Shown here one piece after another: positions 20,016-44,142 of a stretch of 64,000 bases of DNA. Location of the stretch: the NCBI GenBank assembly GCA_040755995.1, contig JBFMAF010000020.1:64001-128000 (forward strand). The letters run 5' to 3'. The notes under the pieces are model-generated. The model saw only the letters and a list, made by a program, of their open reading frames with translations, searched no databases and was not told the origin of the DNA. A program made the translations under genes and the position numbers. Each line of letters begins with the position of its first letter. Position 1 is the stretch's first letter. Source of the stretch: Acidobacteriota bacterium. Its GTDB lineage: Bacteria > Acidobacteriota > CAIWXX01.

Positions 20016-20951
20016 ATGACTGCGGTTTTGTTCGGGATCGTCTATGCGGGGGTATTGGTGTTCGTCATCGCCAGTATCGCCCGCGCATGCTACTACGCGA
20101 AACTACCGATTCATCTCCGGTGGGAGCTCTACCCGGTGCCGCACGAGGACCCGAAGCGAGTCAAGCATGGCGGCTCGTATTTCGAGGAAATTGATTGGTG
20201 GACCAAGCCGCGCAAGACCAACCTGGCCGGTGAGCTGGCCGCCATGGTGCCGGAGATGCTGTTCATGGTGGCGCTGTGGGAGCACAATCGGAAGCTCTGG
20301 ATTCGTTCATTCCCGTTCCATTTCGGGCTTTATCTCTTGATTGGGACGACCGGGCTGCTGCTCATCAGTGCGCTCCTTACGATCTTCGTGCCCGCCCTGA
20401 TGGCCGGCTCATTCGGGCTGTTCATGCACTGGGTCTACACGGTCACCGGGATTGCCGGCGTGATTCTGAGCATACTGGGTGCGGCCGGCCTTCTGGCCCG
20501 GCGGCTCACGGACAAGATGCTCAAGCCGTACACCACCGCGGGTGACATCTTCAACTTAGTGTTCTTCATCGCCACGTTCGTCGTCCTGGGCGCCGCCTAC
20601 CTGATCCATCGCCCGGACTTCGGCGGCACGCTGGCGCTGACGGTCGGCCTGCTTCGCTTCGACACCGCCATCCAGGTGCCGTTGCTGGCGAAGGCCGGCA
20701 TCGTCATGGGGGCGGTCCTGGCTGCCTACATCCCCCTCACCCACATGTCCCACTTCGTAGGGAAGTACTTCACGTACCACGCGGTACGGTGGAGCGACGA
20801 GCCGAACATGCGGGGGAGCGAGCTGGAGAAGAGGCTCGCCGAGTACCTGACCTACAGGCCGACCTGGGCCGCCTCGCACGTGACGGCCGACGGCCTGAGG
20901 ACCTGGGTCGACATCGCCACCACGAATCCAGCTCAAGGGGGGCGCAAGTGA
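20016..20951 (+). CDS. NarI-family cytochrome b membrane subunit (DsrM/HdrE-like)
   Basis: AGGAGG RBS; about 5 TM helices; LRWELYPVPHE, FPFHFG, YIPLTHMSH; GTGA overlap with the Fe-S gene. Confidence 0.85.
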   Translation: MTAVLFGIVYAGVLVFVIASIARACYYAKLPIHLRWELYPVPHEDPKRVKHGGSYFEEIDWWTKPRKTNLAGELAAMVPEMLFMVALWEHNRKLWIRSFPFHFGLYLLIGTTGLLLISALLTIFVPALMAGSFGLFMHWVYTVTGIAGVILSILGAAGLLARRLTDKMLKPYTTAGDIFNLVFFIATFVVLGAAYLIHRPDFGGTLALTVGLLRFDTAIQVPLLAKAGIVMGAVLAAYIPLTHMSHFVGKYFTYHAVRWSDEPNMRGSELEKRLAEYLTYRPTWAASHVTADGLRTWVDIATTNPAQGGRK

Positions 20952-22555
20952 AACCTGACGTCAAACTGTCCGATATGTCGCGGGAGGAGCGGACTCCCAT
21001 CATGCACCTCGAGATCGAGAACCTGATGCGGATGCCTGAGCCGCTGGAGAATCCATCGAAGGACCGCCCGCTTCCGCCGCTGCAGGAACAGGCTCGCGAA
21101 CGCTACGAGTGCCTTCTCGACGACACATCTGCACTGAACATTCCCAAGCCGAAGACGAAACAGGACGAAGACGAGCTCGTCAGGAAGTTCCTCTCCGGTC
21201 TCGAGAAGCTGTTCACCAGGGAGAACAACTGGACGTTCCTCCAGCCGCTCGTGCTGTCGATGGAGCACTGTGCGAAGTGCCAGACCTGCGCCGAGGCCTG
21301 CCATATCTGGGAGGCGAGCGGCGAGAATGAGCTGTACCGGCCGACGTACCGTTCCGAGCTCGTGCGCAGACTCTACTTCAAGCATGTGAAGAAGGGCGGC
21401 CTGCTGTCGGCATGGCAGCACGGCGACGTCAAGCTCAACTGGCCCTTCGTAGCGCGCCTCGCGGAGCTCGCCTACCGCTGCAACCTGTGCCGGCGCTGCG
21501 CGCAGACATGCCCGATCGGCGTGGACAACGGGCTGATCGCGCACGAGCTGAGGAAGCTCTTCAGCCAGGAGCTCGGGATCAACTCGAAGGAGTGCCACGA
21601 CAACGGCTCGATGCTCCAGCTCAAAGTCGGCTCCTCCACCGGCATGAACGCTCTCGTCGTCAAGGACAACATCCAGTTCATCGACGAGGACACAACCGAG
21701 AAGTCCGGCATCACGGTGGAGACGCCGTGGGACGTAGAAGGCGCCGACGTCCTCCTCATGCACAACGCGGGCGAGATCATGGCCTGGCCCGAGAATCCGG
21801 GCGCGTTCGCCGTCATCCTCAACGTGGCCGGCATCAAGTGGACCCTCTCGTCCGAGCTCGCCGCATACGACGCCATCAACTACGGCCTCTGGTACGACGA
21901 CTCGCAGTTCGCGCGCGTCGCCATCCTGCACGCCCAGGCCGCCAAGAAGCTCGGCGTGAAGAAGATCGTCATGGGCGAGTGCGGGCACGCCCACAAGGCA
22001 CTCTCCGTCATTGCCGACCGGGTGCTCACCGGCGACTTGAACATCCCGCGCGAGAGCGCCATGACGCTGCTGCGCGATATCGTCATGAACGATCGGATCA
22101 AACTGGACCCGTCACGCAACGACTTCCCAGTGACCTTGCACGACCCGTGCAACCTGGTCCGCCTCATGGGTGTCGTGGAACCTCAACGCGAGATCGTCAG
22201 GAAGATATGCCCCAAGTTCCGCGAAATGGAGCCGCACGGTGTCAACAACTACTGCTGCGGCGGGGGCAGCGGCTTCGCCATCATGAGCGGAGGCAACTTC
22301 GCCGACTGGCGGCACCATGTCTCCGGAAGGAAGAAGCTGCAGCAGATCCTGGATGCGTTCGCCGACTGCAAGGAGCCGTCGATCAACAAGTACGTCTGCG
22401 CTCCGTGCAGCAACTGCAAGGGTCAGCTCCGCGATATCCTCGCGTACTACGACATCTGGGAGAAGAACCGGATTCTGTACGGAGGACTGGTCGAGCTGAT
22501 CGTGAACGCCATGACCGACGCCAAGCCGGGATTCATCGAGTGGGAGTGGCACTGA
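20948..22555 (+). CDS. HdrD/DsrK-like Fe-S oxidoreductase with CCG domain
   Basis: GTG start at 20948; CAKCQTCAEAC and CNLCRRCAQTCP ferredoxin motifs; ECGH, HDPC, CCGGGSG, PCSNC. Confidence 0.9.
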   Translation: MKPDVKLSDMSREERTPIMHLEIENLMRMPEPLENPSKDRPLPPLQEQARERYECLLDDTSALNIPKPKTKQDEDELVRKFLSGLEKLFTRENNWTFLQPLVLSMEHCAKCQTCAEACHIWEASGENELYRPTYRSELVRRLYFKHVKKGGLLSAWQHGDVKLNWPFVARLAELAYRCNLCRRCAQTCPIGVDNGLIAHELRKLFSQELGINSKECHDNGSMLQLKVGSSTGMNALVVKDNIQFIDEDTTEKSGITVETPWDVEGADVLLMHNAGEIMAWPENPGAFAVILNVAGIKWTLSSELAAYDAINYGLWYDDSQFARVAILHAQAAKKLGVKKIVMGECGHAHKALSVIADRVLTGDLNIPRESAMTLLRDIVMNDRIKLDPSRNDFPVTLHDPCNLVRLMGVVEPQREIVRKICPKFREMEPHGVNNYCCGGGSGFAIMSGGNFADWRHHVSGRKKLQQILDAFADCKEPSINKYVCAPCSNCKGQLRDILAYYDIWEKNRILYGGLVELIVNAMTDAKPGFIEWEWH

Positions 22556-22718
22556 GCGGCCCGGGTCGCTCGAACATTCGGACTGGCGCGGCCGGAGGCC
22601 GGCTCGAGTTCCGGTTGCGCCGGACCGGTGGTATGATGACAAGAGACTGCTGTCCACAAGGCCCGGGGCGCGAGCGTCTCGCCTCGGCGCAGGAACATTG
22701 ATATTGGGGGGCACTCGA

Positions 22719-23093
22719 ATGGGAAAGAAGATACTGGTTGTCGACGATGAAATGGATGCGGTGACCTATTTCTCGACCGTCTTGAAGGACAACGGGTACG
22801 ACACCATCACGGCGGTGGACGGGCTGGAGGCTCTCAAGAAGATGCGGAGCGACAAGCCGGACCTGGTCACCCTGGACATCACCATGCCCGAGAAGTCGGG
22901 CGTGGGGGCTTACCGCGAGATGAAGAACGACCCGGATCTGAAGAAGATCCCGGTCGTCATCGTGACCGGCGTCACGCATGACTTCAAGAAGTTCATCTCC
23001 ACGCGCCACCAGGTGCCGCCGCCGGAAGGCTATCTGGAGAAGCCGGTCAAACCGGAAGATCTGGTGGCCGAGGTCAAGAAGCACATCGGATAA
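22719..23093 (+). CDS. Single-domain response regulator receiver
   Basis: ILVVDDE, LDITMP, VTG, EKPV; no output domain; extended -10-like TGGTATGAT at 22629-22637. Confidence 0.92.
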   Translation: MGKKILVVDDEMDAVTYFSTVLKDNGYDTITAVDGLEALKKMRSDKPDLVTLDITMPEKSGVGAYREMKNDPDLKKIPVVIVTGVTHDFKKFISTRHQVPPPEGYLEKPVKPEDLVAEVKKHIG

Positions 23094-23255
23094 CGAGGCG
23101 CGGCCTCGGGCAGACCAGCTCGCGACGCAGCCGTAGCCGGCCGGAGCTGCAACCGGGTGCAGGTACGGGCACTGGAACAGCTACGCGCACCCGTTGTGCG
23201 TGGCGATGAGGCAACTGCGGTACGGGCGGGGTGCTGTGGATGCGGCAAGGTGTGC

Positions 23256-23284
23256 TTGACAGCTCTGTTGGCCAGTCATATCCT
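23256..23284 (+). promoter_or_regulatory. Sigma-70 promoter
   Basis: TTGACA-N17-TATCCT upstream of 23342. Confidence 0.6.
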
Positions 23285-23341
23285 GGCGCCCATCTCCCAA
23301 ATAGGAGACGGGCGCAGAATGCCATCAGGAAGAGGTGAAAC

Positions 23342-24073
23342 ATGAGACGGTCCTTGCTCGCAATCTTGTTTGCGATGTCCTTCTCATTCGCGCTGCTGCA
23401 GGCGGATGTGACCATCAGTTACTCGATCAAGAGGTCCGTAGATGGCACACCTGCCGACGGCGGTCGCGTGATGTTCGTCAAGGGCCCCAGGCTGCGGATC
23501 GACGACACGATCGGCGGGAAGACTTCAACGCGAATCATCGACCTGCGGAGTGGCCTGGCCATCGAGCTCGACGACGAAGCCATGCGGGCGATTACGATGC
23601 GGCTCTCCAGGTGCGCCGCGGATGTGAGCGACTCCGTGCCGCCGGACAGAACGGAGGTCGAGGTCAGGCCGAGCCAGCTGCGGAGAGAGATCCGGGGGCA
23701 GTCCTGCGGCGGCTACGATCTGGTTCTCTCCCGACGGGATGCTAAGGCCAACGCGAGAGCCTGGGCCACCCGCGACGCACCGGGCGCCGCAGAGTATGTC
23801 GCCTTCTGGAAGGATGCGGCATCCGGGTGTCTGCCCATCGAGGAGTTCGACCCGGACCACCCCGCATCGGCCGAGAACATCATGATCACGGAGGCGTTCA
23901 GGAGGATCGCTGAAAACGGCGGGATGCCCTACGAGTGCGTGATGACGCTCACGGTGTCGACCGCAGGAAAGGATCTGGTCCGCGAGTACGTCTGGAGGCT
24001 GACGGATGTATCGTGTGCCCCCATAAGAGACGACGCGTTCGCCGTACCATCATCCTACGCGAGCACCAGGTAG
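23342..24073 (+). CDS. Secreted hypothetical protein (DUF4412-like)
   Basis: GAGGTG RBS; signal peptide ending LQAD; VKGPRLRID...IIDL pattern. Confidence 0.72.
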   Translation: MRRSLLAILFAMSFSFALLQADVTISYSIKRSVDGTPADGGRVMFVKGPRLRIDDTIGGKTSTRIIDLRSGLAIELDDEAMRAITMRLSRCAADVSDSVPPDRTEVEVRPSQLRREIRGQSCGGYDLVLSRRDAKANARAWATRDAPGAAEYVAFWKDAASGCLPIEEFDPDHPASAENIMITEAFRRIAENGGMPYECVMTLTVSTAGKDLVREYVWRLTDVSCAPIRDDAFAVPSSYASTR

Positions 24074-24107
24074 GCGGCCCGTGGACTGGATGATGAAAGG
24101 AGATACC

Positions 24108-25241
24108 ATGGTTTCGAAGCAGCTTCGTGCAATCACCTTGTCTATTGCGGTCCTCGGCCTTGGGATTTCACCCGCTGTCCACGCGGCGCAGGACCTGCTG
24201 GTCTCCAACTGGTTCGGAGACGCATACCGCTTCGACGGGCTCACGGGCGTCGCCAAGGGGGTGTTTGCCAGCGGAGTGAATATTGCAGAGGGGATGACTC
24301 TCGGGCCCGACGGGAACCTGTACGTCTCAGACAACCAGTTCGATCGCGTCCTGAAGTTCGATGGGAACACGGGAGCCTACATGGGCATCTTCGCCAGCGG
24401 CGGCGGACTGGACGGGCCGCACGGCCTGGTATTCGGCGCGGACGGATACCTCTACGTCTCCAGCTACTGGAGCAATCAAATACTGCGATACAACGCCTCG
24501 ACCGGCGCTTTCGCGGGCATCTTTGTAACAGGTGATGTGTTCTTTGCTCCGACGGCTCTGGCGCTGCCCGCAGGTGGAGCCCTGTATGCGTGCAACTGGT
24601 TCGGTGAAGTCCGCCGGTACGACATCACAACCGGAGCGTTGCTGGGGACGTTCGCCACGGACACGGGTGTCGTCCAGGGCGAGGTGTTCGGCCCCGATGG
24701 CAACCTCTATATCACCGACTACGCTAACGACAAGCTGTTGCGGTACGACTCGGCGGGCACCTTCCTCGGGGAAGTGGCCTCGGGGGCGCCGATGGATGGG
24801 CCGCGCGGCGTCACGTTCGGACTGGAGGGCGACTTCTACATATCGAGCTACTGGAGCCGCCAGGTACTGCATTACGACTGGGCTACCGGAGGCTTCGAGG
24901 GTTTCTTCGTTACTGGAGACACCTTCTTCGCTCCAACCTACCTCATGTTTGCCAACATCGTTGACAGCAATCCAGTGCCAAGTATCCGGCGGCTCAGGCC
25001 CGGCAGCGCGAGAGCAGGCGGTGGCGCCTTTCAGCTCATCGTCTCTGGCGCCAAGTTCGTCAGCAGCTCGAAGGTCAAGTGGAACAAGACATACCTGATA
25101 ACGACCTACGTTTCATCCGCAACTCTGCGCGCTCAAGTGCCTTCGAAGCTCATTCGCCGGCGCGGAACGGCGAACGTCACCGTCGTCAATCCGGCGCCGG
25201 GAGGGGGAACGTCTAACACGAAGACGTTCAATATAAACTAG
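24108..25241 (+). CDS. Secreted NHL/Vgb-like beta-propeller with C-terminal IPT/TIG domain
   Basis: AAGGAG RBS; signal peptide ...VHAAQ; repeated FGPDGNLYVS blades; NPVPSI...VTVVNPAPGGGTSN. Confidence 0.87.
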   Translation: MVSKQLRAITLSIAVLGLGISPAVHAAQDLLVSNWFGDAYRFDGLTGVAKGVFASGVNIAEGMTLGPDGNLYVSDNQFDRVLKFDGNTGAYMGIFASGGGLDGPHGLVFGADGYLYVSSYWSNQILRYNASTGAFAGIFVTGDVFFAPTALALPAGGALYACNWFGEVRRYDITTGALLGTFATDTGVVQGEVFGPDGNLYITDYANDKLLRYDSAGTFLGEVASGAPMDGPRGVTFGLEGDFYISSYWSRQVLHYDWATGGFEGFFVTGDTFFAPTYLMFANIVDSNPVPSIRRLRPGSARAGGGAFQLIVSGAKFVSSSKVKWNKTYLITTYVSSATLRAQVPSKLIRRRGTANVTVVNPAPGGGTSNTKTFNIN

Positions 25242-25297
25242 CGAGGCTGCGCCTCAGACCCACGAGGCATGTCGCGGCTGGAGCGGCGCAGCCTCGC
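25241..25297. terminator. 13-bp perfect inverted repeat between convergent genes
   Basis: GCGAGGCTGCGCC (25241-25253) and GGCGCAGCCTCGC (25285-25297). Confidence 0.45.
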
Positions 25298-25428
25298 GTC
25301 GAGGGTCGAAGGTCGAAAGTGAACACCGTGGGAATTGAGGGCCAATGACGCACCGCACCAAAGATTTGACTCAATCGCAACACGTTTTTCGCCTCAAGCC
25401 ATACTAGCGGGACGCGCTCGGCCGCCGC

Positions 25429-25842
25429 TCACCCTCGATCGCCGCATGAGTTGTCTCTTTCCAGCTTGCGCAGGATCGTGAGCAGCACCTGCGGGTCGAC
25501 CGGCTTGGCCAGAAGTGCGTCGGGGCCGCGGATACCGTGTTGTGAACCCAGATATGACTGGCAGTCGTCCTGCAGGATCTGGTCCAGGCCGGTGATAACC
25601 ACCATGCAGATGTCGGTCCACCGAGGATCCCGTCGCAGTGTGACGAGCAGATCGAGCCCGGACCGGCCGGGCATCAGCACGTCCAGAAGGATCGCATCGG
25701 GGCGGAAGCCGTCGAGCGCAGCGATGGCTCTGGTCGAGTCGCCGGCGCCCCGCGCCTCATACCCGTTGTCCTCGAGAAACGAGGTGAGGTAGATCACCAC
25801 GTCCGGGTCGTCGTCGACCACCAGTACTCTGTTGTTCCACAT
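25429..25842 (-). CDS. Single-domain response regulator receiver
   Basis: Start at MWNNRVLVVDDD, 4 nt after the kinase stop; LLDVLMP, ITG, AKPV. Confidence 0.9.
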   Translation of the reverse strand: MWNNRVLVVDDDPDVVIYLTSFLEDNGYEARGAGDSTRAIAALDGFRPDAILLDVLMPGRSGLDLLVTLRRDPRWTDICMVVITGLDQILQDDCQSYLGSQHGIRGPDALLAKPVDPQVLLTILRKLERDNSCGDRG

Positions 25843-25846
25843 GGAC

Positions 25847-27304
25847 CTAGTTGGCTCCGGCCGTCTGCGGTGGGACGCTCCTGTTGTTCGCGTGCGTGCT
25901 GGGGCGGGGTTCCAGCGGCAGCCGTACGACGAACCGGCTGCCGCGGCCGGGTTCCGAGTCGACGTCGATACCGCCGCCGTGCTTGTCCGCGATCTTGTTG
26001 GCAATGAAGAGGCCCAGGCCGGTGCCGCTGATCCCCTTGGATGAGAAGAACAGCGAGAAGATCTTCTCGCGGGTCTCCCGGTCCATTCCGATGCCGTTGT
26101 CTTCCACTTCGAAGAACATCCACGGAGCGAGACGGCGCACCGCGAATGATACGCGGTGCGATGTTTTCGACGTGTCCGCGCGGCAGGCGTCGAGCGAGTT
26201 CTCGAGGATATTCACGAGCATCGCGCGAACGGCCTTGGCGTCCCCAGGGACGCACCCGGCACCCGGCTCGACGGTCAAAGAGAGCGCGACATCGAGCTCC
26301 GTAGCCCGCTGCTGCAGCGACTCGACCATGTCCTCGGCTAGCTTCTGCACCTCGACGTCGTTCACCTGGAGCTCCCGGTCCTTTGCGTAGTAGAGGATGT
26401 CGAGCACCATGCTGCGGATGCGTTCCACGTTGCGCTGCACCATTCCCCAGCCCTGCTTGACGCGGTCGGGGCGGTTCTTCTCGAACCCGGAGTTCACCAT
26501 GTAGAGCCCGCCGTCGAGCCCCGTGAGCAGCCCCTTGATGCCGTGGGAGATGGAGCCTACCAGGAGGCCGATCGATGTGAGCTGCGATTGCAGCTCGCGG
26601 AGCTGGGTGATGTCGGTCGACATCTCGATGATCGACTCGACCTCGCCGGCCGAGTTGCGAAGCGGCGCCGCAACGCAGAGCACGTGCATCCTCTTCCCCG
26701 CGGCCGACACCACGACCTCCTCGTGCTCCATCGTGACCCCCTCGTCGAAGGTCCGCTGCGAGGTGCACACCAGGCACTGCTCGTCGCGGTGCTTGTAGAC
26801 CTGCCAGCAGTACTGGCCTACCCCGTGCCCGAAGGTCTCCCGGAACTTGCGATTTGCGTGCTGGATGACGCGATCCCGCCCCTGCACCGAGATGAAGCAA
26901 GGCACCTCCTCGAACATCTGCGCAAGGCGGGCCTGCACTTTCTCGAGCTGCTTCTCGAGACGCTTGATTACTCGGAGATCCGTGTGCATCTCCATCACGG
27001 CCTCGATCTCGCCTGCATCGTTGCAGATCGGCGCGGTCCGGACTCGCACCGGGATCGACACGCCGCCGAGAGTGGTCAGCGTCTGCTCGCTGACCTGCGG
27101 GGTGCCGCCGACGAAGGTCTGCTCGACCGGGCAGTCAGGGCACTTCTCGGCTCGTCCCTTGTAAACGCGGTAGCAGTACTCCCCGATTCTGTCTCCGAAA
27201 TCCTTGCGGAACAGCCGGTTGCCTTCCACGATCCGGTACTCCCGGTCGTGAACCGAGAGGTAGCAGGGCATATGCTCGAAGTACTGCTGGAATCGTTCCG
27301 TCAT
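25847..27304 (-). CDS. Cytoplasmic tandem-PAS sensor histidine kinase
   Basis: Two PAS repeats each with C-x10-C-x2-C; H-box ISHGIK, NILENS, DNGIG, GTGLGL; no TM helix. Confidence 0.93.
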   Translation of the reverse strand: MTERFQQYFEHMPCYLSVHDREYRIVEGNRLFRKDFGDRIGEYCYRVYKGRAEKCPDCPVEQTFVGGTPQVSEQTLTTLGGVSIPVRVRTAPICNDAGEIEAVMEMHTDLRVIKRLEKQLEKVQARLAQMFEEVPCFISVQGRDRVIQHANRKFRETFGHGVGQYCWQVYKHRDEQCLVCTSQRTFDEGVTMEHEEVVVSAAGKRMHVLCVAAPLRNSAGEVESIIEMSTDITQLRELQSQLTSIGLLVGSISHGIKGLLTGLDGGLYMVNSGFEKNRPDRVKQGWGMVQRNVERIRSMVLDILYYAKDRELQVNDVEVQKLAEDMVESLQQRATELDVALSLTVEPGAGCVPGDAKAVRAMLVNILENSLDACRADTSKTSHRVSFAVRRLAPWMFFEVEDNGIGMDRETREKIFSLFFSSKGISGTGLGLFIANKIADKHGGGIDVDSEPGRGSRFVVRLPLEPRPSTHANNRSVPPQTAGAN

Positions 27305-27370
27305 GACAGCCTCTCCTCAGGCGCGGGCAGAGCGCCCTGGCGGGCCTCTTCGGTCCGAGGCCGCGGCCCG

Positions 27371-29146
27371 CTAGGCGCTCGGCTTGTGATGGTCGCGGAG
27401 CTCGAGAATACGCCGCAGGTTGTCGACGAGCTCATGTTCCTTCACCGGCTTGTCCATGTATCCGTCTGGAACGGGCACGGCCCGCTGGTAGATGACCTCG
27501 CGGAACTCCGGATGGCCCGTGACCACGCACACGGGAGTACGGGCCAGGCTCGGATCCCCGCGCAGCTCGGCGAATGTCTCGATCCCGTCCTTGCCCTCCA
27601 TCGACAGGTCGAGGGTGATGAGATCCGGCTTGACCTGGCGAGCCATCGCGAGAGCGGCGTTGCCGTCGGCCGCCTCGAAGACCTCCGCACCGGCATCCTC
27701 CAGCACGGTCCTGATGAACACCCGTATGTCGGGCTCGTCGTCCACGACGAGGATGCGACGGTTGTGCAATGGGAGAGCAGGTTTGGGCATTTCGACCACC
27801 GCCTTTGGTTTCTTCATTACGGCGCACTCTTCGATGAGCAGCGCGCCCGCTACCAGGTCGACGAGCTGTTGCACCTCGCACCCCAGTTTGTAATGCTTGA
27901 TGAGATCCGAGAGCCCGTCCACACAATTGTGACACGATGTTACCACTACTTGCGCACCCGTGGCCTTTATCTGTTCCGCCTTCACCTTTGCCGACTTGAG
28001 GCGGCGCGGCGTGTATTCGGACATCGACATGGCGCCGCCGCCGCCCGTGCAGCAGAAATTCTCGGCGCGATTGGGAATCATCTCGACGAAATCGGTGGTC
28101 ACGAGGCGGAGCAGCTCGCGCGGCTCCTCGGTGACCCCGCACGAGCGGGCCAGGTTGCAGGAGTCATGGTAGGTCACTCGCTTGCCGAGCCGTGTGGGAT
28201 CGACCTTGATGCGGCCCTCCTTGATGTACCTGAGCATCGTGAACACCGAGCTCTCCATGTCGAAGTCCTGGTCGATGCCGGCCCAGTTCGGCCCTTCGCA
28301 GCGCGTCGACCTGTAGCCATGGCCGCACTCGGAGATCACGATCCGCTTCGCCTTCAGCTCCGCCATCTTCTCATACACGCGGCGAGCCGCGGTGCCGCCC
28401 AGCTGGTCATCTCCTGAGAAGAGGCCGAAGTTGGTCTGGTCCCAGCCCTCCGATGGCATCGTCCAGCTCTCTCCGGCCGCCCAGAAGATCTTGGCGGCTG
28501 CCGCTATCGTGCGTGGATCGTACTTCGCTTCCCGTGGGTTGATGGTGTACATCACCTCGACATTCGGCTTGTCGATGGGTATGCGGGCCGTCTCATCCTC
28601 CACCTCACTGACCAGCTCATCCGACATCCACTCGAGGGTCTCCAGGTAATCTTCCCTCAGCACCCCCATCTGGTTGCCGATCTCCCACTGGTCTTTCGAG
28701 ACCACCCGCACACCCTCGGGCATCACGCCGACCGCCGTCAACAGGCCTCGCATCACACGGTTCACGACCGCTGTGTCCACACCCATCGGACAGTTGATGG
28801 TGCAGCGGCGGCAGTTGGTGCACGTGCCGAACGCAATGTCCTTCAGACGATCGAGATCGGCGTCCGTGAGCGGCTCCTTCGCACCGACCCACCAAGGGAA
28901 GACGCGGCCCGTCCAGTCGTAGTTGTACTTGAAGAGCTTGCGGAGCTGGTCGGCTTTGAAGGAGGGTGTCATCTTGGGATCGTCCGGGTGCGTCAACACA
29001 TAGTGGCATGCCTCATTGCACATGCCACAGTGAACGCATGCAACGAGCGACCCCACCAGGGGGCGAGTCAGCTTCTTCGCGAGAATCTCGCGCATCACCT
29101 GGATCTTGTATGTGCTATCCGAATTCCGTCTCGTATTGGTGTCCAT
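27371..29146 (-). CDS. HdrD/TmcB/HmcF-like Fe-S oxidoreductase fused to a C-terminal receiver domain
   Basis: CVHCGMCNEAC, CTNCRRCTINCP, ECGH, HDSC, CCTGGGG, SCHNC, then in frame RILVVDDE...LDLSM...VTG...DKPV. Confidence 0.92.
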   Translation of the reverse strand: MDTNTRRNSDSTYKIQVMREILAKKLTRPLVGSLVACVHCGMCNEACHYVLTHPDDPKMTPSFKADQLRKLFKYNYDWTGRVFPWWVGAKEPLTDADLDRLKDIAFGTCTNCRRCTINCPMGVDTAVVNRVMRGLLTAVGVMPEGVRVVSKDQWEIGNQMGVLREDYLETLEWMSDELVSEVEDETARIPIDKPNVEVMYTINPREAKYDPRTIAAAAKIFWAAGESWTMPSEGWDQTNFGLFSGDDQLGGTAARRVYEKMAELKAKRIVISECGHGYRSTRCEGPNWAGIDQDFDMESSVFTMLRYIKEGRIKVDPTRLGKRVTYHDSCNLARSCGVTEEPRELLRLVTTDFVEMIPNRAENFCCTGGGGAMSMSEYTPRRLKSAKVKAEQIKATGAQVVVTSCHNCVDGLSDLIKHYKLGCEVQQLVDLVAGALLIEECAVMKKPKAVVEMPKPALPLHNRRILVVDDEPDIRVFIRTVLEDAGAEVFEAADGNAALAMARQVKPDLITLDLSMEGKDGIETFAELRGDPSLARTPVCVVTGHPEFREVIYQRAVPVPDGYMDKPVKEHELVDNLRRILELRDHHKPSA

Positions 29147-29152
29147 AAATCC

Positions 29153-29839
29153 TCAGCCGCGCTGCAGCGGGAAGGTGCCGCGGTGACCTAGCGTCCTGCC
29201 CAGCCAGTACCGCGTGAACGGGTAGTAAAGGTAGTGAGAAATCTTGGAGAACGGAACGTAGAGAAGGAAGAAGCTTGTCGCGAGCAGATAGGCGATGACG
29301 TAGCGATCGCCCTCGATCCTGCCCACTATGCTCGCCTCCGCGAAAACGCCGAGCAGGAACCAGATCGTCAGCATGATGACCGAGAAGTAGTCGTCGGGTG
29401 TCGAAATCAGCCGCATCACCGGCCGCACCACCCGGCGCACGATCCGATACAGGCCGATCGCGAACGCAGCCAAGAGCAGTGCCATCGTCGCATTGGCGAT
29501 GATCGGTATCTGAAGGAACGAACGGCTCAGGGTTGAGAGAAACGCGAGGCCGATACCGGCCGCGACACCGAGATGGAACAACGCGAACGTAAGATAGAAA
29601 GCGAATCCCCGGCGAGTGCTCTCCATCCCCCAGGGCATGAGAACGTTTGCGAGCGAGTAGTAGGCGCCGCGCCGGGCATCGGTGCGCCCCGGATTGCCGG
29701 GCGCCTGCCGGTCGCGGGTGGCGCGGAACGACAGCAGCCAGCGGATGCGCATGGTGTACACGACGGCCATGACGCCGAGCGCCACCCAGTGGATCACCTC
29801 CACCGTGCCCAGCAGGCCGGAAGGTTCGTGGACGGGCAT
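29153..29839 (-). CDS. NarI-family cytochrome b membrane subunit
   Basis: Start MPVHE with GGAGGT RBS; about 5 TM helices; LFHLG, ISTPDDY, VPFSKISH. Confidence 0.83.
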   Translation of the reverse strand: MPVHEPSGLLGTVEVIHWVALGVMAVVYTMRIRWLLSFRATRDRQAPGNPGRTDARRGAYYSLANVLMPWGMESTRRGFAFYLTFALFHLGVAAGIGLAFLSTLSRSFLQIPIIANATMALLLAAFAIGLYRIVRRVVRPVMRLISTPDDYFSVIMLTIWFLLGVFAEASIVGRIEGDRYVIAYLLATSFFLLYVPFSKISHYLYYPFTRYWLGRTLGHRGTFPLQRG

Positions 29840-29840
29840 A

Positions 29841-30368
29841 TCAGTTACCTCCTTGGATCTGCGCGGCAAACGGCTTGTACTCGCGCGAGTCCACCGCAAC
29901 GAAGATGACTTCGCGCAGGTTCGAGCTGTTCTTCAGGTGCTCCTTGACCGCGGACACCAGAACCTTGGCGCTCAGATCCAGGGGCACCTGGTATAGGCCC
30001 GTTCCGAGCGGAGGCAGCGCGAGAGTCTTCATGCCTTTCTCCTCGGCTCGCGCGAGCACCGCCCCGACTGCCTTCTCCAGCTTCCCCTTCGTCTCGGGCT
30101 CGCAAAACTTCGGGCCGTTCACGTGGATGATGTTCTTCGCCTTGAGCTTGCCGCCGGACGTCACGATCGCCTCGCCGGTGGCGCACTTGCCGGCAGCGGC
30201 CAGCTGATCCTGGATCGCTTTGCCACCGCGCGATCCGATCGCGCCTCCATAGCCGGATCCGAGCCGGCAGTCCTCGGTGATGTCATACACGAAGGCATCC
30301 ACCTCCATGTCCGTGATGTCACCCCGGACCAGTTTGATGACCTTGTCACCGATCTTCTGTTCGATCAT
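29841..30368 (-). CDS. Divergent macrodomain (Appr-1''-p processing family)
   Basis: GDIT, GSGYGGAI, GEAIVTSGGKL, IIHVNGP, PPLGTG; start MIEQ with AGGAGG RBS. Confidence 0.88.
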   Translation of the reverse strand: MIEQKIGDKVIKLVRGDITDMEVDAFVYDITEDCRLGSGYGGAIGSRGGKAIQDQLAAAGKCATGEAIVTSGGKLKAKNIIHVNGPKFCEPETKGKLEKAVGAVLARAEEKGMKTLALPPLGTGLYQVPLDLSAKVLVSAVKEHLKNSSNLREVIFVAVDSREYKPFAAQIQGGN

Positions 30369-30933
30369 AGTGCCACCCTCCTGGACATCCGCCGTCGTCA
30401 GTATGCGCGACTCCGGCGGACGATTGTTTGCCCTTGCCTTGCACGTTCCTGCCGGCTCCCGCCCTGCCGGGTTTCCTCGCGGTCCCCGGCTGGTCGATCC
30501 GGCTGCCGGCGAGCGCACACCGAACCCGCTCCACGTCCAGCAGGTCCGCCAGAGTGAACTCGTCCAGCGCCTCGGTGATCCTCTTGTTGATCAGCAGGTA
30601 CACCACCCGGCATTCGCACCTGGCGCTCTTCGCGCAGATGCTGGGGTTCTCGACACATTCGACGATGTTGATCGGCCCGAGCACCGACTCGATCACGTCC
30701 CTGACCGTGATCTCCTCGGGGCTCCGCGCCAGGCTGAACCCGCCGCCCTTCCCGCAGACGCCGCGCAGCAATCGGTGGGCGCGCAGCGCCACCGTGAGCT
30801 GCTCCAGATAGCCGCGGGACAGATGCGTCTGCTCGGCAACCGTGGCCAGGCTCATCGTCTCCTCGGTGCCGGCCGTGCGCGCCACCTCGATCATGAGCCG
30901 CAACGCATATCGCGGCCGCGTCGACAACCTCAT
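30346..30933 (-). CDS. Rrf2-family transcription regulator with Cys cluster motif
   Basis: MRLSTRPRYALR, YLEQL, GKGGGFSLAR, CVENPSICAKSARCEC. Confidence 0.92.
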   Translation of the reverse strand: MRLSTRPRYALRLMIEVARTAGTEETMSLATVAEQTHLSRGYLEQLTVALRAHRLLRGVCGKGGGFSLARSPEEITVRDVIESVLGPINIVECVENPSICAKSARCECRVVYLLINKRITEALDEFTLADLLDVERVRCALAGSRIDQPGTARKPGRAGAGRNVQGKGKQSSAGVAHTDDGGCPGGWHYDRTEDR

Positions 30934-30940
30934 CGCATCT

Positions 30941-31020
30941 TTGTAATACGATTAATCCTATTTGTCAACCTATTTTAGTAGGAGTATAGTTCTGGTATTC
31001 CTACTCAATGGCTATGAATT
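30941..31020 (-). promoter_or_regulatory. AT-rich rrf2 promoter with repeated CCTA(C/T)T half-sites
   Basis: TTGACA (30968-30963)-N17-TACAAA ending 6 nt before the ATG; half-sites at 30957, 30969, 30977 (inverted) and 31000. Confidence 0.55.
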
Positions 31021-31137
31021 TCGCATTCCCGAGCTCCAGACGCCGGCCGGCTTCCGTGTGTCCTCGCCGTTGTGTGCTACAGAGGCTTTGTTGAAGGCCG
31101 GTGGCGGGTATGATTGCGAATCCGGCTGATGAGCCGA

Positions 31138-32679
31138 TCAATGGTCGGCAAGCGCGATCTCTTGTGCCAGGACTGAGCCGTCGCAGCGGGGCTGCCAGGA
31201 GTAGGCGTTGCTGATGGCGTACAGGTCCATGTCCGCATACAGCGGTATCCACGGGAGATCCTCCACAAGCGCCCGCATGATCTCTTGCATCGAGCGCTTC
31301 CGTTCCTGCGGGTCGATCGCCTTCGCGCAGTCTTCGATGGCCCGGTCGATCGTGGGGTTCCGGTACCGGCCGTAGTTGGACCCGCCGTAGCGCCCGACCG
31401 GATCCGGGGAATGGATGCATGCTTCGAGGACGTCGCTGGCGTCGCCGGTGGCGCAGCCGAAGCGGGAGAGGAAGAACGAGGCGTCGTGGTTGTTGAGCGC
31501 GTCGAAGAACTCGGGGTCCTGCATCAGCTTGACCTCTACGCGAATCCCGACGGGGGCCAGTTGCTGGCGGACGAGGTCCGCGGTAGCGCGGAGTATCTGT
31601 CGAGAGTGCAGGGTGACCTCGAATCCTCTGGGGAACCCGGCGCTGGCCAGCAGACGCCTGGCCTCTGCCGGATCGCAGTGAGGCAGCGGCATGCTCGGGT
31701 CATACCCAAAAATGAAGCTCGGGACCGGCTGGGCCGCAGGGGTGGCGGGTGCGGCGAGATCTCTTACAAGGGAATCCCTATCGATCGCAAGCTGAATCGC
31801 CTGGCGCACGGCCCGGTTCCTGAAGGGGTTGGGCTTCGCACTGCAGTACGGGGTGTCGTCGCGCATGAGATCGTAGCCAAGGTATTTTACAAAAATGCTG
31901 TCGTGCTGCAGGATGTGGTATCCGCCGTGAGCCTTGACGGTGCGAGCCAGTCTCACGTCGTTGCTCTGCACGAATGCGCTCCGCCCCGACCCCATATCTC
32001 GAATCACCTGTTCGGGTGTTCTTCCGAGCAGCAGGGTCACATCGCGCAATGCGGGTGTGCGCCCCCAGTACTCGTCGTACCGCTGCATTGAAATCTGACG
32101 CCCCTTCCGCCACTCGACCAGCCTGTACGGTCCGGTTCCATCTTCCCTGTCCCGGAGAGTCTCGGATGAGGAATTCTCCGGCACGATCGAGACGAAAAGC
32201 AGCTTGTTCAGGAAGACGCTCTGTGTGCGCCTCAGGTGGATCGTGACCTGCAGAGGCCCGGTGGCGCGCACGTCCGCTACGTTCGACATCAGGGTTCTCA
32301 CTTCGAGCTCCGGGTGATCGAGAAGCCGCTGGATCGAGTAGGCCACATCCGATGACGACAGCTGCTTGCCGCTGTGGAAGGTGACCGACGGCTCGATGTC
32401 CAAGATCCATGTCGACGGGTCCGGGGTTCGCCATGAGCGCGCAAGGCATGGGTGAATTCGCAGTTGAGCGTCCGTGCGCACAAGCGACTGATAGAAGTGC
32501 GAAGCCGTGGCGAAGTCGCTGATAGTGTAGCTGGCGTGAGGATCGAGGGTCTCGGGCTCGTACGGCACAGAGATCACGATGGAGTCCAGCCGGCCGGAAC
32601 CGTTCGAACCGCACGCAGCCAGCAGCAGACACGCAGCAGCCGGCGCGAACCACACCGTCCCGAACGTCCGCGGCATCAT
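31138..32679 (-). CDS. Family-5 (peptide/nickel) ABC substrate-binding lipoprotein, orphan
   Basis: Lipobox LLAAC; TLDPH, LARSW, FHSGK, GTGPYRL, VRQAI..AIDR; no adjacent permease. Confidence 0.9.
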   Translation of the reverse strand: MMPRTFGTVWFAPAAACLLLAACGSNGSGRLDSIVISVPYEPETLDPHASYTISDFATASHFYQSLVRTDAQLRIHPCLARSWRTPDPSTWILDIEPSVTFHSGKQLSSSDVAYSIQRLLDHPELEVRTLMSNVADVRATGPLQVTIHLRRTQSVFLNKLLFVSIVPENSSSETLRDREDGTGPYRLVEWRKGRQISMQRYDEYWGRTPALRDVTLLLGRTPEQVIRDMGSGRSAFVQSNDVRLARTVKAHGGYHILQHDSIFVKYLGYDLMRDDTPYCSAKPNPFRNRAVRQAIQLAIDRDSLVRDLAAPATPAAQPVPSFIFGYDPSMPLPHCDPAEARRLLASAGFPRGFEVTLHSRQILRATADLVRQQLAPVGIRVEVKLMQDPEFFDALNNHDASFFLSRFGCATGDASDVLEACIHSPDPVGRYGGSNYGRYRNPTIDRAIEDCAKAIDPQERKRSMQEIMRALVEDLPWIPLYADMDLYAISNAYSWQPRCDGSVLAQEIALADH

Positions 32680-38794: not shown

Positions 38795-39235
38795 TTACTG
38801 ATTGTTCCGCAGCGGTCCGAGCGCCCTGACGGTCTCGACCATGCTGGTGATCACGCTCACAAACCTGGTGCCTTCACTTGCCGAAACAAATTCGAATCGG
38901 CAGCGATCTTCGGCTATCCCAAATTGCTTCAGCAGCCTTACGAGCAGCCTGTGGCGCTGGAGCGCGCGGTAGTTGCCCTCCTTGTAGTGGCAGTCGCCCG
39001 GATGGCAGCCCAGGATTATCACGCCGTCAGCCCCGAGCTCATATGCCCTCATGACGAACTGCGGGTCGATCCTCCCGGTGCACATTACCCTGATCACGTA
39101 GACATTCGGCGGATAGGGTGTTTGAAAGGTGCCGGCCTTGTCTGCGCCGGCATACGCGCACCAGTTGCAGAGGAACCCGATGATCTTGGGCTCGAAACCC
39201 TCGCCGCTCGGGGGAATCGCGATCTCGGGCATCAT
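38795..39235 (-). CDS. mvhD: MvhD/FlpD [2Fe-2S] subunit
   Basis: GFLCNWCAYAGAD, RVMCTGRID, GCHPGDCHY, SASEG; start overlaps the hdrA stop. Confidence 0.94.
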   Translation of the reverse strand: MMPEIAIPPSGEGFEPKIIGFLCNWCAYAGADKAGTFQTPYPPNVYVIRVMCTGRIDPQFVMRAYELGADGVIILGCHPGDCHYKEGNYRALQRHRLLVRLLKQFGIAEDRCRFEFVSASEGTRFVSVITSMVETVRALGPLRNNQ

Positions 39236-41196
39236 TCCAACACTCCTGCCAGTTCCGCACAGATCGCGCGGTCGGTGAAGAATTGCCCCTCTATTACCCC
39301 GGCCGGACACGCTGCCACACAGGTGCCGCAACCCTGGCAGAGGACGGCGTTGACAACGGAGACCTCCTTGTCCGCGTCGAACGATATCGCCTTGTACGGG
39401 CACACTTTGCCACAAACGCGGCAGCCCGAGCATCTCTCTGCGTCGATTGACGCCGTGATCGGCTCGACATACAGCTTCTTGCCTTCGACGAGCCCCGACA
39501 GGATATAGCCCGCGGCCGCCGCGCCCTGGCTCATCGCATGTTGGATATCCATGGGCGACTGGCAGGCGCCGGCCAGATATATGCCTCGCACGGTGCTCCT
39601 CCCGGCATCCAGCCGGTCATGAAGCTCCTCGAAAAAGCCGAACCTATCGCAATTCGTGTCCATCGTTGCAGCGAGGTTCGCGGCCGAATCGGAGGGGACG
39701 ACGGCTGGACAGAGGACCACAATGTCCGCGTCGAAGCTCCCGAGGCTTCCGGTCGTATCTCTGTATGCGACATTCGGGTTTCCAGCCGAATCCGAGACTC
39801 TGATGTCCTGGATGTCCCCGTACCGGACGAAGGCAGCGTTGGGATTGGCACGCGCCCTGTGGAGTATCGACGACTCATGCTTGCCAGGCACCGCGATCTC
39901 CTTGTAGAGATGCAACACCTTTGTCCCGGGCAGTTTGGTCTCGATCATGTGATTGAACTTGAATGCGTACTGGCAGCAGACGGCCGAACAGTAGTCGTTG
40001 CGCCGGACGTCCAGGCTCCCCACGCAGTGGATGATGGCCACGGCATCAGGGGACTCGTGTCCGGCGAGCTGAAGGAGCCCTGCGGTAGGGCCGTTTGACG
40101 CGAGAATCCGTTCGAAATCGAGCGCGGTGAGAACTCCGCCGATGCGGCCGTAGCCGAGGTCCGGCAGCTTCCTGCAGTCGTAGAGGCTCGCCCCAATGGC
40201 GACGACGATTGCGCCCACCTCCCGCTCGATCATCTGCGCGGCCTGCGCGTGGTCGATCACGCTCTCACCCACCGGGCATGCGGCTTTGCACGCCTGGCAG
40301 TCCTCTCCGCGGAATCGGATGCATGTGTGCGCATCGAGAGAGGGGACGTTCGGGAGGGCTCCGGGGAATGGCACATCTATAGCTTTTCGTTCGTTGAGGC
40401 CGCAGTTGAACTCATTCGTTGCGCTCACTGGGCAGACAGGGATGCACTCGCCACAGCCGACGCAGAGCTCGCTGCTCACGTACCGAGGCGACTGGCGTAT
40501 CCTCGCCGTGAAGCGGCCGTGGAAACCTACGACGTCGACGACCTCGGCGAGGGTCCGGATCTCGATCCGCCCGGAGTGTTCGCCGTGGAGAATCTCGCCA
40601 AGCAACGGCTCCAGCATGCACGATCCGCACTCCATGGTCGGCGCGATCTCCTCGAACCGCACAGGCAAGCCCCCGAGGACCGGCGACTTCTCCACGACGG
40701 TGACCCTGCGGCCGGCCTCGGCCAGGGTAAAGGCCGCCTTCAGTCCCGCCGGCCCGGCTCCGACGACCAGAACCTCGGGACAGACATCCAGCTCCTGCCT
40801 GTCGAGCGGCTGATGGAGCCGGATGCGTGCCACGGCACCGCGGATGAGCCTCGCAGCTTTCTCTGTGGCGCGGGCTGGGTCGGGAGTCACCCAGGCCACC
40901 TGTTCCCGGATGTTCACCATCTGCATCAAGTACGGGTTCACTCCCGCTGAGGCGAGGACACGCCTGAAGGTAGGCTCATGGTCCCTGGGCGAGCAAGCAG
41001 CGATGACGACGCGATCGGGGGCATTGTCGCGCAGATTCGATTCGAGCGCGGCCTTGCCTTCCTCCGAACACATGAAGTCGATTGCCTCGAGATAGACGGC
41101 CTCTGTGTGACCGTGCAGCGACTCCATCAAGCGCGCGCTGCTGATTCTCTCGCTTATGCTGGTGCCGCAGCTGCAAAAGTAAATGCCGACCTTCAT
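39232..41196 (-). CDS. hdrA: Heterodisulfide reductase subunit A (FAD, Fe-S)
   Basis: Start MKVGIYFCSCG; AACSPR, NIREQ, GAGPAG, FER, HCVGS, CSAVCC, C-terminal 2x[4Fe-4S]. Confidence 0.95.
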   Translation of the reverse strand: MKVGIYFCSCGTSISERISSARLMESLHGHTEAVYLEAIDFMCSEEGKAALESNLRDNAPDRVVIAACSPRDHEPTFRRVLASAGVNPYLMQMVNIREQVAWVTPDPARATEKAARLIRGAVARIRLHQPLDRQELDVCPEVLVVGAGPAGLKAAFTLAEAGRRVTVVEKSPVLGGLPVRFEEIAPTMECGSCMLEPLLGEILHGEHSGRIEIRTLAEVVDVVGFHGRFTARIRQSPRYVSSELCVGCGECIPVCPVSATNEFNCGLNERKAIDVPFPGALPNVPSLDAHTCIRFRGEDCQACKAACPVGESVIDHAQAAQMIEREVGAIVVAIGASLYDCRKLPDLGYGRIGGVLTALDFERILASNGPTAGLLQLAGHESPDAVAIIHCVGSLDVRRNDYCSAVCCQYAFKFNHMIETKLPGTKVLHLYKEIAVPGKHESSILHRARANPNAAFVRYGDIQDIRVSDSAGNPNVAYRDTTGSLGSFDADIVVLCPAVVPSDSAANLAATMDTNCDRFGFFEELHDRLDAGRSTVRGIYLAGACQSPMDIQHAMSQGAAAAGYILSGLVEGKKLYVEPITASIDAERCSGCRVCGKVCPYKAISFDADKEVSVVNAVLCQGCGTCVAACPAGVIEGQFFTDRAICAELAGVLE

Positions 41197-41660
41197 GACA
41201 GTCTCTCCGCTATGCGACCGACGATCCGTTCGGCAGCGAGGGGCACGGATCGCGCGACCGCCTCGGTCAGCTCTCCACTGAACGTGTCGACGTCCTGCGC
41301 CTCGATCCCCCAAACCTCGATCACATCCGGCATCGGCAGCCCCAGCGCGCGGCCCAGTTCCAGGGCCACGGGGAGGCTGGTGTCGTGGGACGACGCCAGG
41401 TTGCGTGTTGCGGGCCGCCGGCTGAGCGGCACGGCCTGAATGGTCCCCGGCTCGACGATCCCGGTGACCATGGCATCGACGACTATGGCCCGCTCAAATC
41501 CTGCCATGGCCTCCATCAGCCCCAGACCTCCGACGTAAGCCTCTTTGACGTGAACGTCCGGGCGGCTGCTCATCTTCTCGCTCACCAGGCATGCGACGCG
41601 AAGTCCGACGGCGTCGTCAGAACGAACCGGATTGCCGAGCCCGATCACCACGGTCTTCAT
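41193..41660 (-). CDS. [NiFe]-hydrogenase maturation endopeptidase
   Basis: Start MKTVVIGLGN..RSDDAVG; IVVDA, SSH. Confidence 0.93.
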   Translation of the reverse strand: MKTVVIGLGNPVRSDDAVGLRVACLVSEKMSSRPDVHVKEAYVGGLGLMEAMAGFERAIVVDAMVTGIVEPGTIQAVPLSRRPATRNLASSHDTSLPVALELGRALGLPMPDVIEVWGIEAQDVDTFSGELTEAVARSVPLAAERIVGRIAERLS

Positions 41661-43144: not shown

Positions 43145-44142
43145 CCCATCTTCCCTTTGAGGATCGAGTGAGCGAGGCTGTACTTGTAGAACGTCCCCGC
43201 GCAGTCGGGAATGGCGTCGAGGATGGCGTCGATACGGTCCTGTCCCGACGGCCCGCCTTTCGCACGGCCCAGGTCCAGGATCGATCCAAGGGAGGCGACC
43301 ATCTTCGCGCCCTGGTCCTGCACCCCTTCCGGCGCCCCGTAGCAGCCGGTGCACGGCATGTTGACCTTGGGGCAGAGCCCGCCGCAGCCGTCTCTCGTTG
43401 CGATCCCCATGCAGATTAGCCCCTGCTCGAGGAGGCATTGATCGGGATCCGGTATGAGCTCGAATGTCCGGTGAAACCCGCCGATGATCTTGTCCTGCTT
43501 CTTCCGCGTGCACTCGTCGCACACGGTGGACCGGCCGGCCCCGAGGACGCTCCCCTTCGGGGGCAGGGGCGCTCCCCTAAGGAGCAGATCGACGACGTTC
43601 GAGAGTTGGCGAGGCTCAGGCGGACACCCCGGGATGAAGTAGTCCACATCGGTGACCTGCTCGAGCGTCTGGACTCGATCGAAGAACTCGGGAAGGCGCA
43701 GCTCCCCTTCGGCGACCGGCGTCCCAGGCGCAGGTGTGGCCCGAGTGGGGTTGTCGAGCGAGGGACTCTCGATGTAGATCGTACGCATGTGTTCGGAAGC
43801 AGTCGAGAGATTGCTGAGAGCCGGCATGCACCCCTCGTACGCACACGATCCGTACGCGACAAGCACCTGGGACTTGTGGCGCAGGAGCCGCGCCATTTCG
43901 CGGTTCTCCTCGGTTCTGACCGCCCCATTGAAGAGCGTGACGGCGATCCCACGGTCCGGGAGCGCCTCGACCCCCGCCTTCTTCGTGTCCACGAGGCAGG
44001 GGCAGAAGACCAGATCGAAGTGCGCATCGATCTCCAGTATCTTCTCGTGCAGGTTCAGCAACGAGATCTCGCATCCTCCGCAGGAGGCAGCCCAGTACAT
44101 ACTCAGCAGCGGCTTGTCCACTTTGGTGTGCTCCCTGAACAT
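43141..44142 (-). CDS. mvhG: [NiFe]-hydrogenase small subunit (MvhG type), cytoplasmic
   Basis: SCGGCE, YGSCA, PGCPP, CDEC, CLLEQG..CMG, C...CP...PCTGC; no Tat signal. Confidence 0.93.
   Translation of the reverse strand: MFREHTKVDKPLLSMYWAASCGGCEISLLNLHEKILEIDAHFDLVFCPCLVDTKKAGVEALPDRGIAVTLFNGAVRTEENREMARLLRHKSQVLVAYGSCAYEGCMPALSNLSTASEHMRTIYIESPSLDNPTRATPAPGTPVAEGELRLPEFFDRVQTLEQVTDVDYFIPGCPPEPRQLSNVVDLLLRGAPLPPKGSVLGAGRSTVCDECTRKKQDKIIGGFHRTFELIPDPDQCLLEQGLICMGIATRDGCGGLCPKVNMPCTGCYGAPEGVQDQGAKMVASLGSILDLGRAKGGPSGQDRIDAILDAIPDCAGTFYKYSLAHSILKGKMG

Follow-up and report, generated by a model that had tools for sequence, protein, structure and literature searches.

A six-gene cassette of uncultured sulfate-reducing bacteria that joins a macrodomain to a DsrMK-like redox module

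Many uncultured sulfate-reducing bacteria share a cassette of six genes in which a macrodomain gene is joined to a membrane redox module and to the genes of an Rrf2 regulator and a two-component system. It is described here from a 64,000-nucleotide stretch of DNA (hereafter the window; positions 64,001 to 128,000 of contig JBFMAF010000020.1, assembly GCA_040755995.1) of an Acidobacteriota bacterium, where it occupies positions 25429-30933 and reads, in order, Rrf2 regulator, macrodomain, cytochrome b, iron-sulfur (Fe-S) subunit with a fused receiver, histidine kinase and lone receiver. The macrodomain and the loss of heme ligands from the cytochrome b are its distinctive parts. A first-pass annotation of the sequence had described six co-oriented, tightly spaced genes lacking cytochrome c subunits, and on both points the closer analysis agrees: all six open reading frames (ORFs) follow one another on the minus strand, with intergenic gaps of -23, 1, 6, 66 and 4 nt from the Rrf2 gene to the lone receiver, and none of them encodes a cytochrome c, so that the operon is without the periplasmic cytochrome c that marks members of the Tmc and Hmc systems.

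Conservation and hosts of the cassette

The macrodomain (175 residues) belongs to a tight subfamily, with 563 of 2223 candidates falling at E ≤ 1e-3 and the top 120 at 60-87% identity, and a genome scan anchored on it returned 95 relatives, the best 80 loci of which were kept. According to their record titles, the hosts belong to the Acidobacteriota, Myxococcota, Planctomycetota, Gemmatimonadota, Spirochaetales, Zixibacteria and Deltaproteobacteria, and all are metagenome-assembled genomes (MAGs). The macrodomain gene was followed by the cytochrome b gene in all 80 loci, and the cytochrome b gene by the Fe-S gene in 77 of the 77 with room for it. Of the 65 loci with room for it, 59 had the receiver fused to the Fe-S protein, the six misses being two apparent frameshifts and four receiver-less genes; a kinase gene was present in 56 of 60 and a receiver gene downstream of the kinase in 54 of 60, and an Rrf2 gene lay immediately upstream of the macrodomain in 65 of 78. 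The gene combination is thus conserved across genomes, as the neighbourhood search proposed with the annotation was meant to establish: all six genes were present in 46 of the 59 loci with room on both sides, an order far beyond chance. Where Rrf2, receiver or kinase is missing, the macrodomain, cytochrome b and Fe-S genes stay joined, and the flanks of the 80 loci show no additional gene that accompanies the cassette from lineage to lineage. The sulfate-reduction marker dsrA was found in 74 of the 80 hosts (45/50 and 29/30).

The same linkage appears from other starting points. A reverse scan of metagenomes from the Fe-S protein, limited to the best 80 of 503 matches and made with seed patterns that favour the macrodomain clade, recovered the cytochrome b in 72/72, the macrodomain in 62/62 and the fused receiver in 58/63 loci with room. 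When 351 genomes from the host's phylum were searched without bias with a cytochrome b profile, 23 matched, and of these 13 carried the macrodomain, nine did not and one had no upstream sequence; dsrA was present in 12 of the 13 macrodomain-positive genomes, the sample holding 37 genomes with dsrA. In a second phylum sample, 17 of 151 genomes matched (five with the macrodomain, 11 without, one ended by the contig end), and dsrA was found in 15 of the 16 genomes checked. Taken together, the genome, metagenome and two phylum-sample counts identify macrodomain, cytochrome b and Fe-S gene as the core of the cassette. In a FastTree phylogeny that took in 24 of the 71 macrodomain-linked Fe-S sequences, these form one clade (support 0.97) nested among forms without a macrodomain, some of which already carry Rrf2, fused receiver and kinase (loci L189, L191, L204 and L210).

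At 7.7 Mb and 99.8% completeness, the genome of the host carries dsrA above cut-off and dsrC, together with dsrB, apr, qmo-like and dsrTMKJOP-like genes, although the labels other than dsrA, dsrC, DsrM, DsrK, TmcC and TmcB come from reading the ORFs only. Because a true DsrM/DsrK pair and a true TmcC/TmcB pair lie elsewhere in this genome, the cassette is an extra module. Other modules of related build are also present. A third one (contig C10, 102695-108678) comprises Rrf2, a dihemic cytochrome b, a DsrK-like protein (345 against a cut-off of 400), receiver, kinase, a further Rrf2 and a further receiver, and so follows the same regulatory logic with no macrodomain; at C10, 389441-398149, a canonical tmcCB pair follows two kinases with Cys-rich PAS domains and two receivers. 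A protein with two tandem DsrC domains is encoded on contig C25 (2984-3739), and its relatives occur near the cassette in four loci (L018, L075, L089 and L147). Within the window itself, mvhG/mvhA-like, hdrA-like and mvhD-like ORFs can be read at about 38800-44142 on the minus strand, and Rfam gave no match at the gathering threshold within 22500-31300.

The redox module and its relatives

The cytochrome b (29153-29839, minus strand; 228 residues) had been called NarI-like by the first-pass annotation, and the assignment stands, since the protein has five hydrophobic segments, models with a pLDDT of 82 and returns NarI as its top eight Foldseek matches, at probability 1.0 but with E values of only 7e-3 to 4e-2 (matches to NarI and EtfD together span 7e-3 to 0.2). 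No Pfam family matched, and weak NCBIfam matches to HmcE and TmcC fell far below cut-off. Its heme ligands were examined in 79 sequences, namely the window's own and those of the 78 loci that remained after a truncated and a frameshifted one were left out. H89 and H202 are the sole invariant histidines (79/79); they align with H56 and H205 of NarI (weakly, E 0.1) and also with the ligands of the proximal heme in TmcC and DsrM from the host. The four heme histidines of the dihemic DsrM, TmcC, HmcE and NarI proteins are not all there: the distal position 184 is Tyr in 61 sequences and Phe in 18, only one of the 79 has a His 8 to 17 residues after H89, and the last-helix distal His is absent from all 61 distant relatives that retain both proximal histidines. 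Three control cytochromes b of the host (TmcC, DsrM and a third one) retain both distal histidines. Because both distal-heme histidines are missing, the role of an ordinary two-heme, charge-separating quinol oxidase appears unlikely. A second DsrMK-like pair with a DVU0259-like receiver lies 2.3 kb from the cassette, at 20016-23093 on the plus strand; its cytochrome b also lacks both distal histidines, its Fe-S protein scores 319 against 400 on the DsrK profile, and it was found near the cassette in 6 of the 80 loci.

The Fe-S subunit (27371-29146, minus strand; 591 residues) consists of the electron-carrying part, a variable linker and a DVU0259-like receiver with the phosphoacceptor-position Asp513. 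Eight cubane cysteines in two motifs, one full CCG motif (C330, C365, C366, C405 and C408) and the cysteine of an ECGH motif occur without exception in the 60 fused proteins; the first, N-terminal CCG motif is degenerate (Y-T-I-N, T-N-F-G, ECGH) and retains only C274. Two cubanes, one CCG motif and ECGH form the signature of DsrK, TmcB and HmcF, as set out in the part of a preprint available to us (10.1101/2023.08.03.551783), and the subunit carries all of these elements. The HdrD identity given by the first-pass annotation must be abandoned, as HdrD has two complete CCG motifs and this protein has a single non-cubane site. Nor is it an equivalog of any of the three families, with NCBIfam scores of 233/400 for DsrK, 316/735 for TmcB and 331/750 for HmcF, while the host's own DsrK and TmcB score 717 and 732. 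The top fold match is EtfD (PDB 9OJN, E 1.9e-13), and no DsrMK, Tmc or Hmc chain was among the PDB search results.

The module can thus be placed against four described systems. With DsrMK of the DsrMKJOP complex it shares the NarI-type cytochrome b, the architecture of two cubanes, one CCG motif and ECGH, and dsrAB-bearing hosts, but DsrM is dihemic, whereas the cassette has only the proximal ligands and no JOP, scores far lower on DsrK, adds macrodomain, fused receiver and kinase, and coexists with a true dsrMK(JOP) set. TmcBC and HmcEF of Desulfovibrio are the nearest profiles, and a single-domain receiver and an Rrf2 gene likewise lie nearby (Rrf1 adjoins hmc in Desulfovibrio, according to the available part of PMC13344952); the cassette differs in being without cytochrome c, TmcD and HmcBCD, in the loss of the distal His, in the fusion of its receiver to the enzyme and in the added macrodomain, and the host has its true tmcCB elsewhere. 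EtfD, or EMO, of Mycobacterium smegmatis offers the best Fe-S fold match together with a NarI-type domain and a single proximal heme, but it is one polypeptide with two non-cubane sites and an ETF partner, it keeps a distal His though no heme binds there, and the portions of the literature available describe no receiver or macrodomain for it. HdrDE of Methanosarcina has the same pairing of a cytochrome b with a cubane/CCG subunit, with the difference in CCG motifs already mentioned. The module appears to work like DsrMK, yet it falls outside DsrM, TmcC and HmcE by its distal histidines, outside HdrD, and, through its third core gene, outside MacroD.

As to the substrate, eight of the ten macrodomain-less or upstream-less members of the first phylum sample come from genomes without dsrA; five of these eight adjoin dsrC, and four of those five were also seen beside a cysteine desulfurase gene. 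These neighbours of relatives without a macrodomain, namely dsrC, cysteine desulfurase or dsrE2/tusA, suggest that the family acts on sulfur carried by a protein. The five form a sister clade (L184-L188) in which cytochrome b and Fe-S genes stand beside dsrC and, in four, a TIGR01977 cysteine desulfurase; this pair is possibly a cysteine-fed DsrC persulfide reductase. A more distant single-heme pair (L193, 5768-8442) directly follows dsrE2 and tusA in a genome without dsrA.

The macrodomain and the regulators

The divergent macrodomain gene (29841-30368, minus strand; PF01661) encodes the adenine-site aspartate of the GDIT motif (Asp17, 78 of 79 sequences) and both glycine-rich phosphate loops (G39, G41, G122 and G124, with Y126, each 79/79), so that the residues expected for ADP-ribose binding are present at the level of sequence. 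In macrodomains this Asp contacts adenine and the Gly loops hold the phosphates, and NAAN is the signature of the hydrolases. Positions 28-31, however, read [YF]D[IV]T instead of NAAN in all 79 sequences, while NAAN is present in the aligned PDB chains and in the host's other macrodomain; a label of MacroD-type ADP-ribosyl hydrolase was rejected on this ground. The likeness to proteins of the MacroD/YmdB type (TTHA0132, the PARP14 macrodomain, YmdB) is otherwise clear, with sequence matches at E 1e-22 to 1e-14 and a shared Asp, glycine loops and loop 2 aromatic, but the cassette protein further has GSG[YF] for GGGV, lies below all NCBIfam cut-offs and is linked to a respiratory module.

Complex prediction suggests where this protein may act. 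The macrodomain and the Fe-S subunit were modelled from paired 40-row alignments in three runs with three controls, and the predicted complex scored 0.90 against 0.00 for the best control, with the runs agreeing in at least 98% of contacts and a partner pLDDT of at least 92; in calibration, 116 of 157 solved pairs and 2 of 215 mismatched ones came up to the score mark, counts that are only rough for our own alignments. In the predicted interface, macrodomain residues 17, 37-43, 87-91, 124-127 and 159-162 face Fe-S residues 138-164 and 248-259, a contact surface that includes the ligand cleft (17, 37-43 and 124-127) and would place E155 of the Fe-S subunit at the glycine loops. The fused receiver is not among the confident contacts, and Fe-S residues 147-161 are of low confidence in the lone model. 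Thirteen interface positions are at least 95% conserved in the 71 macrodomain-linked proteins, and five of the 13 fall to 30% or less in ten macrodomain-less proteins (one of which had no upstream sequence); outside the interface the same contrast is seen at 18 of 204 positions, giving a p of 0.006 that is overstated because the macrodomain was gained only once. The prediction supports, but does not show, binding of the macrodomain to the Fe-S subunit through its ADP-ribose cleft; PDB searches turned up no complex of this kind.

Three kinds of regulator accompany the core. The Rrf2 gene (30346-30933, minus strand; PF02082) encodes a protein that probably binds an Fe-S cluster through C93-X6-C100-X5-C106, three cysteines being present in 65 of 65 sequences. 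The soluble PAS-PAS histidine kinase (25847-27304, minus strand) has no hydrophobic segment above threshold, and its H254, N369, D402 and G404 are conserved in 54/54; D470, D513 and K566 of the fused receiver are conserved in 60/60, so that the residues of a phosphorylatable receiver and of a histidine kinase are in place. The lone DVU0259-like receiver (25429-25842, minus strand) has no output domain. Each PAS domain of the kinase has four conserved cysteines (C..C-X10-C-X2-C; 49-50 of 54 for the first, which four kinases lack, and 52-54 of 54 for the second), and the identical motif occurs in two kinases at the host's tmc locus. In NreB-like PAS domains four cysteines bind an Fe-S cluster; those of the cassette's kinase might do the same, and their spacing is unlike that of NreB. 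The available part of a published account of the PAS family (PMC10468136) contains nothing on this motif. The two-component wiring emphasised by the first-pass annotation therefore holds in part: the fused receiver is intact, but because receivers also adjoin the tmc locus and two further MK-like modules in the host, the wiring of receiver and Cys-PAS kinase is not unique to the cassette. Regulation by redox state, which the annotation proposed, is a hypothesis. The larger combination of a redox module with three regulatory layers is conserved in dsrA-bearing hosts and apparently undescribed.

Upstream of the Rrf2 gene, comparison with relatives suggests a putative operator, ACTCCTA-N9-TAGGAGT with three mismatches (30997-31019), and a putative sigma70 promoter, TTGACA-17-TACAAA (30940-30968, minus strand), 6 nt before the Rrf2 ATG; a strict promoter scan gave no minus-strand promoter, and the candidate rests on the comparison. 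Allowing up to three mismatches, the palindrome is present upstream of Rrf2 in 35 of 65 regions and in 18 of 3250 shuffles, with the qualification that its consensus was derived from these same sequences, which are partly close kin. TTGAC[AT] lies within the palindrome, 33-38 nt before the Rrf2 ATG, in 34 of the 65 regions; the palindrome straddles the -35 box in most relatives, and in the window a half site follows that box. From these positions the Rrf2 mRNA is likely leaderless, and we infer that Rrf2 may repress its own transcription at the palindrome; none of the listed sequencing runs was of RNA. Two other patterns, CCTA-N6-TAGG and AAATAGG, were dropped as each was conserved in 1 of 65 regions. 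Twelve further matches to the palindrome (two or three mismatches) on several host contigs might or might not mark an Rrf2 regulon.

A proposed mechanism and its alternatives

The reading that we tentatively prefer, at somewhat less than an even chance, is that the cassette encodes a menaquinol:DsrC-sulfur oxidoreductase that is likely non-electrogenic and bypasses DsrMKJOP, subject to control by Rrf2, a phosphorylated receiver and the macrodomain. We infer its substrate, its electron direction and the macrodomain ligand as follows. A single heme b, the one on the cytoplasmic side, would lie next to a quinone site, as in EtfD, where a putative menaquinone was placed 4-5 Å from the one heme (PMC13083937, as far as its available text goes); a preprint, also available in part, states that such single-heme domains exchange electrons with menaquinone uncoupled from the proton gradient (10.64898/2026.08.18.745454). 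Electrons would pass through the two cubanes to the non-cubane cluster and the ECGH cysteine, reducing DsrC-trisulfide as DsrK does, and the complex would serve as an overflow valve beside DsrMKJOP that does not charge the membrane. Such a route would dissipate the proton gradient conserved by DsrMKJOP and may for that reason be gated in three ways. Rrf2, carrying an Fe-S cluster, would act as the operon's repressor at the palindrome; the kinase with its Cys-PAS domains would phosphorylate the enzyme's fused receiver; and the macrodomain, as a dedicated cap, would dock on the enzyme by its ADP-ribose cleft and could be competed off by an ADP-type nucleotide.

Several observations weigh against this scheme. 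No dsrA was seen in 6 of the 80 hosts, which are incomplete MAGs, nor in one macrodomain-positive genome of the first phylum sample (G169) that is 96% complete. dsrC lies in the fetched flanks of only 5 of the 80 macrodomain-anchored loci, so that the proposed substrate rests on the family and on relatives without a macrodomain. The conservation of the interface reflects a single event, because the macrodomain-linked Fe-S proteins form one clade, and its central contact E155 occurs as well in 7 of ten macrodomain-less proteins. Lastly, E14 (79/79) and H17 (74/79) of the cytochrome b sit at the outer end of helix 1 and could form another distal site; SaEMO, according to the part of the same preprint at hand (10.64898/2026.08.18.745454), illustrates that this fold admits non-canonical distal sites.

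Of the alternatives, the one that survives best, though we consider it unlikely, is that the membrane pair mainly senses the quinone pool through its heme and clusters, its fused receiver feeding a phosphorelay in which the kinase and the lone receiver take part. The cassette has no DNA-binding response regulator, the receiver is fused in the great majority of loci (59/65) and the distal heme ligands are lost, all of which would suit a sensor; yet the catalytic signature of CCG cysteines and ECGH is invariant (60/60), four genome loci have an Fe-S gene without receiver, and relatives without a macrodomain adjoin sulfur carrier genes. Likewise improbable is an electrogenic cytochrome b that relies on a non-canonical distal site (E14/H17, S102), or one that is fed by another membrane complex, such as Tmc, Hmc or DsrJOP, and not by free quinol. 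S102 is present in 67 of 79 sequences beside the near-invariant E14 and H17, and SaEMO, in the accessible portion of its description (10.64898/2026.08.18.745454), has E22/H109 at its quinone pocket and Ser/Ala at a distal ligand position; but the SaEMO-type last-helix His, 18 residues before the proximal His, is missing in 79/79 sequences and in 61/61 distant relatives, which do not retain E14 and H17 either. Other MK, Tmc or Hmc-like genes do lie near the cassette in some loci, but no such partner recurs with it across lineages.

Distinctly less probable is a switch of the DraT/DraG kind, in which the macrodomain would read or remove ADP-ribose attached to the Fe-S subunit at an acidic residue (D152 or E155). 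The predicted position of E155 at the phosphate-binding loops, the conserved Asp17, glycine loops and Tyr126, and an ADP-ribosylglycohydrolase elsewhere in the host genome would all fit, but NAAN is replaced throughout the 79 sequences, no transferase recurs in the flanks of the macrodomain loci, and docking is predicted without any modification; DraT was not found in the host genome either, a weak point given that the family matched no control genome. That the module is an ordinary stand-alone TmcBC/HmcEF paralogue with which the macrodomain gene merely travels along is very improbable, for although its best NCBIfam matches are HmcF and TmcB and macrodomain-less versions have the same Rrf2, receiver and kinase, those scores are far below cut-off, the macrodomain adjoins the cytochrome b in every anchored locus and is present in all 62 Fe-S-anchored ones, and a specific interface is predicted.

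The menaquinol:DsrC-sulfur reading has a bolder extension, which we regard as doubtful: the macrodomain would be a stoichiometric subunit of a respiratory enzyme, a DsrMK paralogue with a single heme. Its cleft would be seated on the Fe-S subunit, and an ADP-type nucleotide (ADP-ribose, ADP, NAD(H) or APS) would either free it or lock it in place. Nucleotide status and the fused receiver would in this way gate an uncoupled bypass of the energy-conserving step in sulfate reducers from many phyla. No description of the cassette was found in the literature searched, with subscription journals and supplements outside its reach, and among titles and abstracts no published account linking a macrodomain to heterodisulfide reductase or DsrK in sulfate reducers was found; the main text of the Sulfomarinibacter paper makes no mention of macro, Tmc, Hmc or DsrK, although its supplements could list these genes.

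How the reduction of DsrC-trisulfide is coupled to energy conservation, and why there are several DsrMK-like paralogues, are standing questions. A clade without distal-heme ligands offers a natural uncoupled control for DsrMKJOP, and it predicts that cells choose between a coupled and an uncoupled route. The fusion of the receiver gives the output-less receivers beside tmc and hmc a testable role, that of direct enzyme control, and if the macrodomain is indeed bound by its cleft to a respiratory Fe-S protein, the fold would serve a function new to it.

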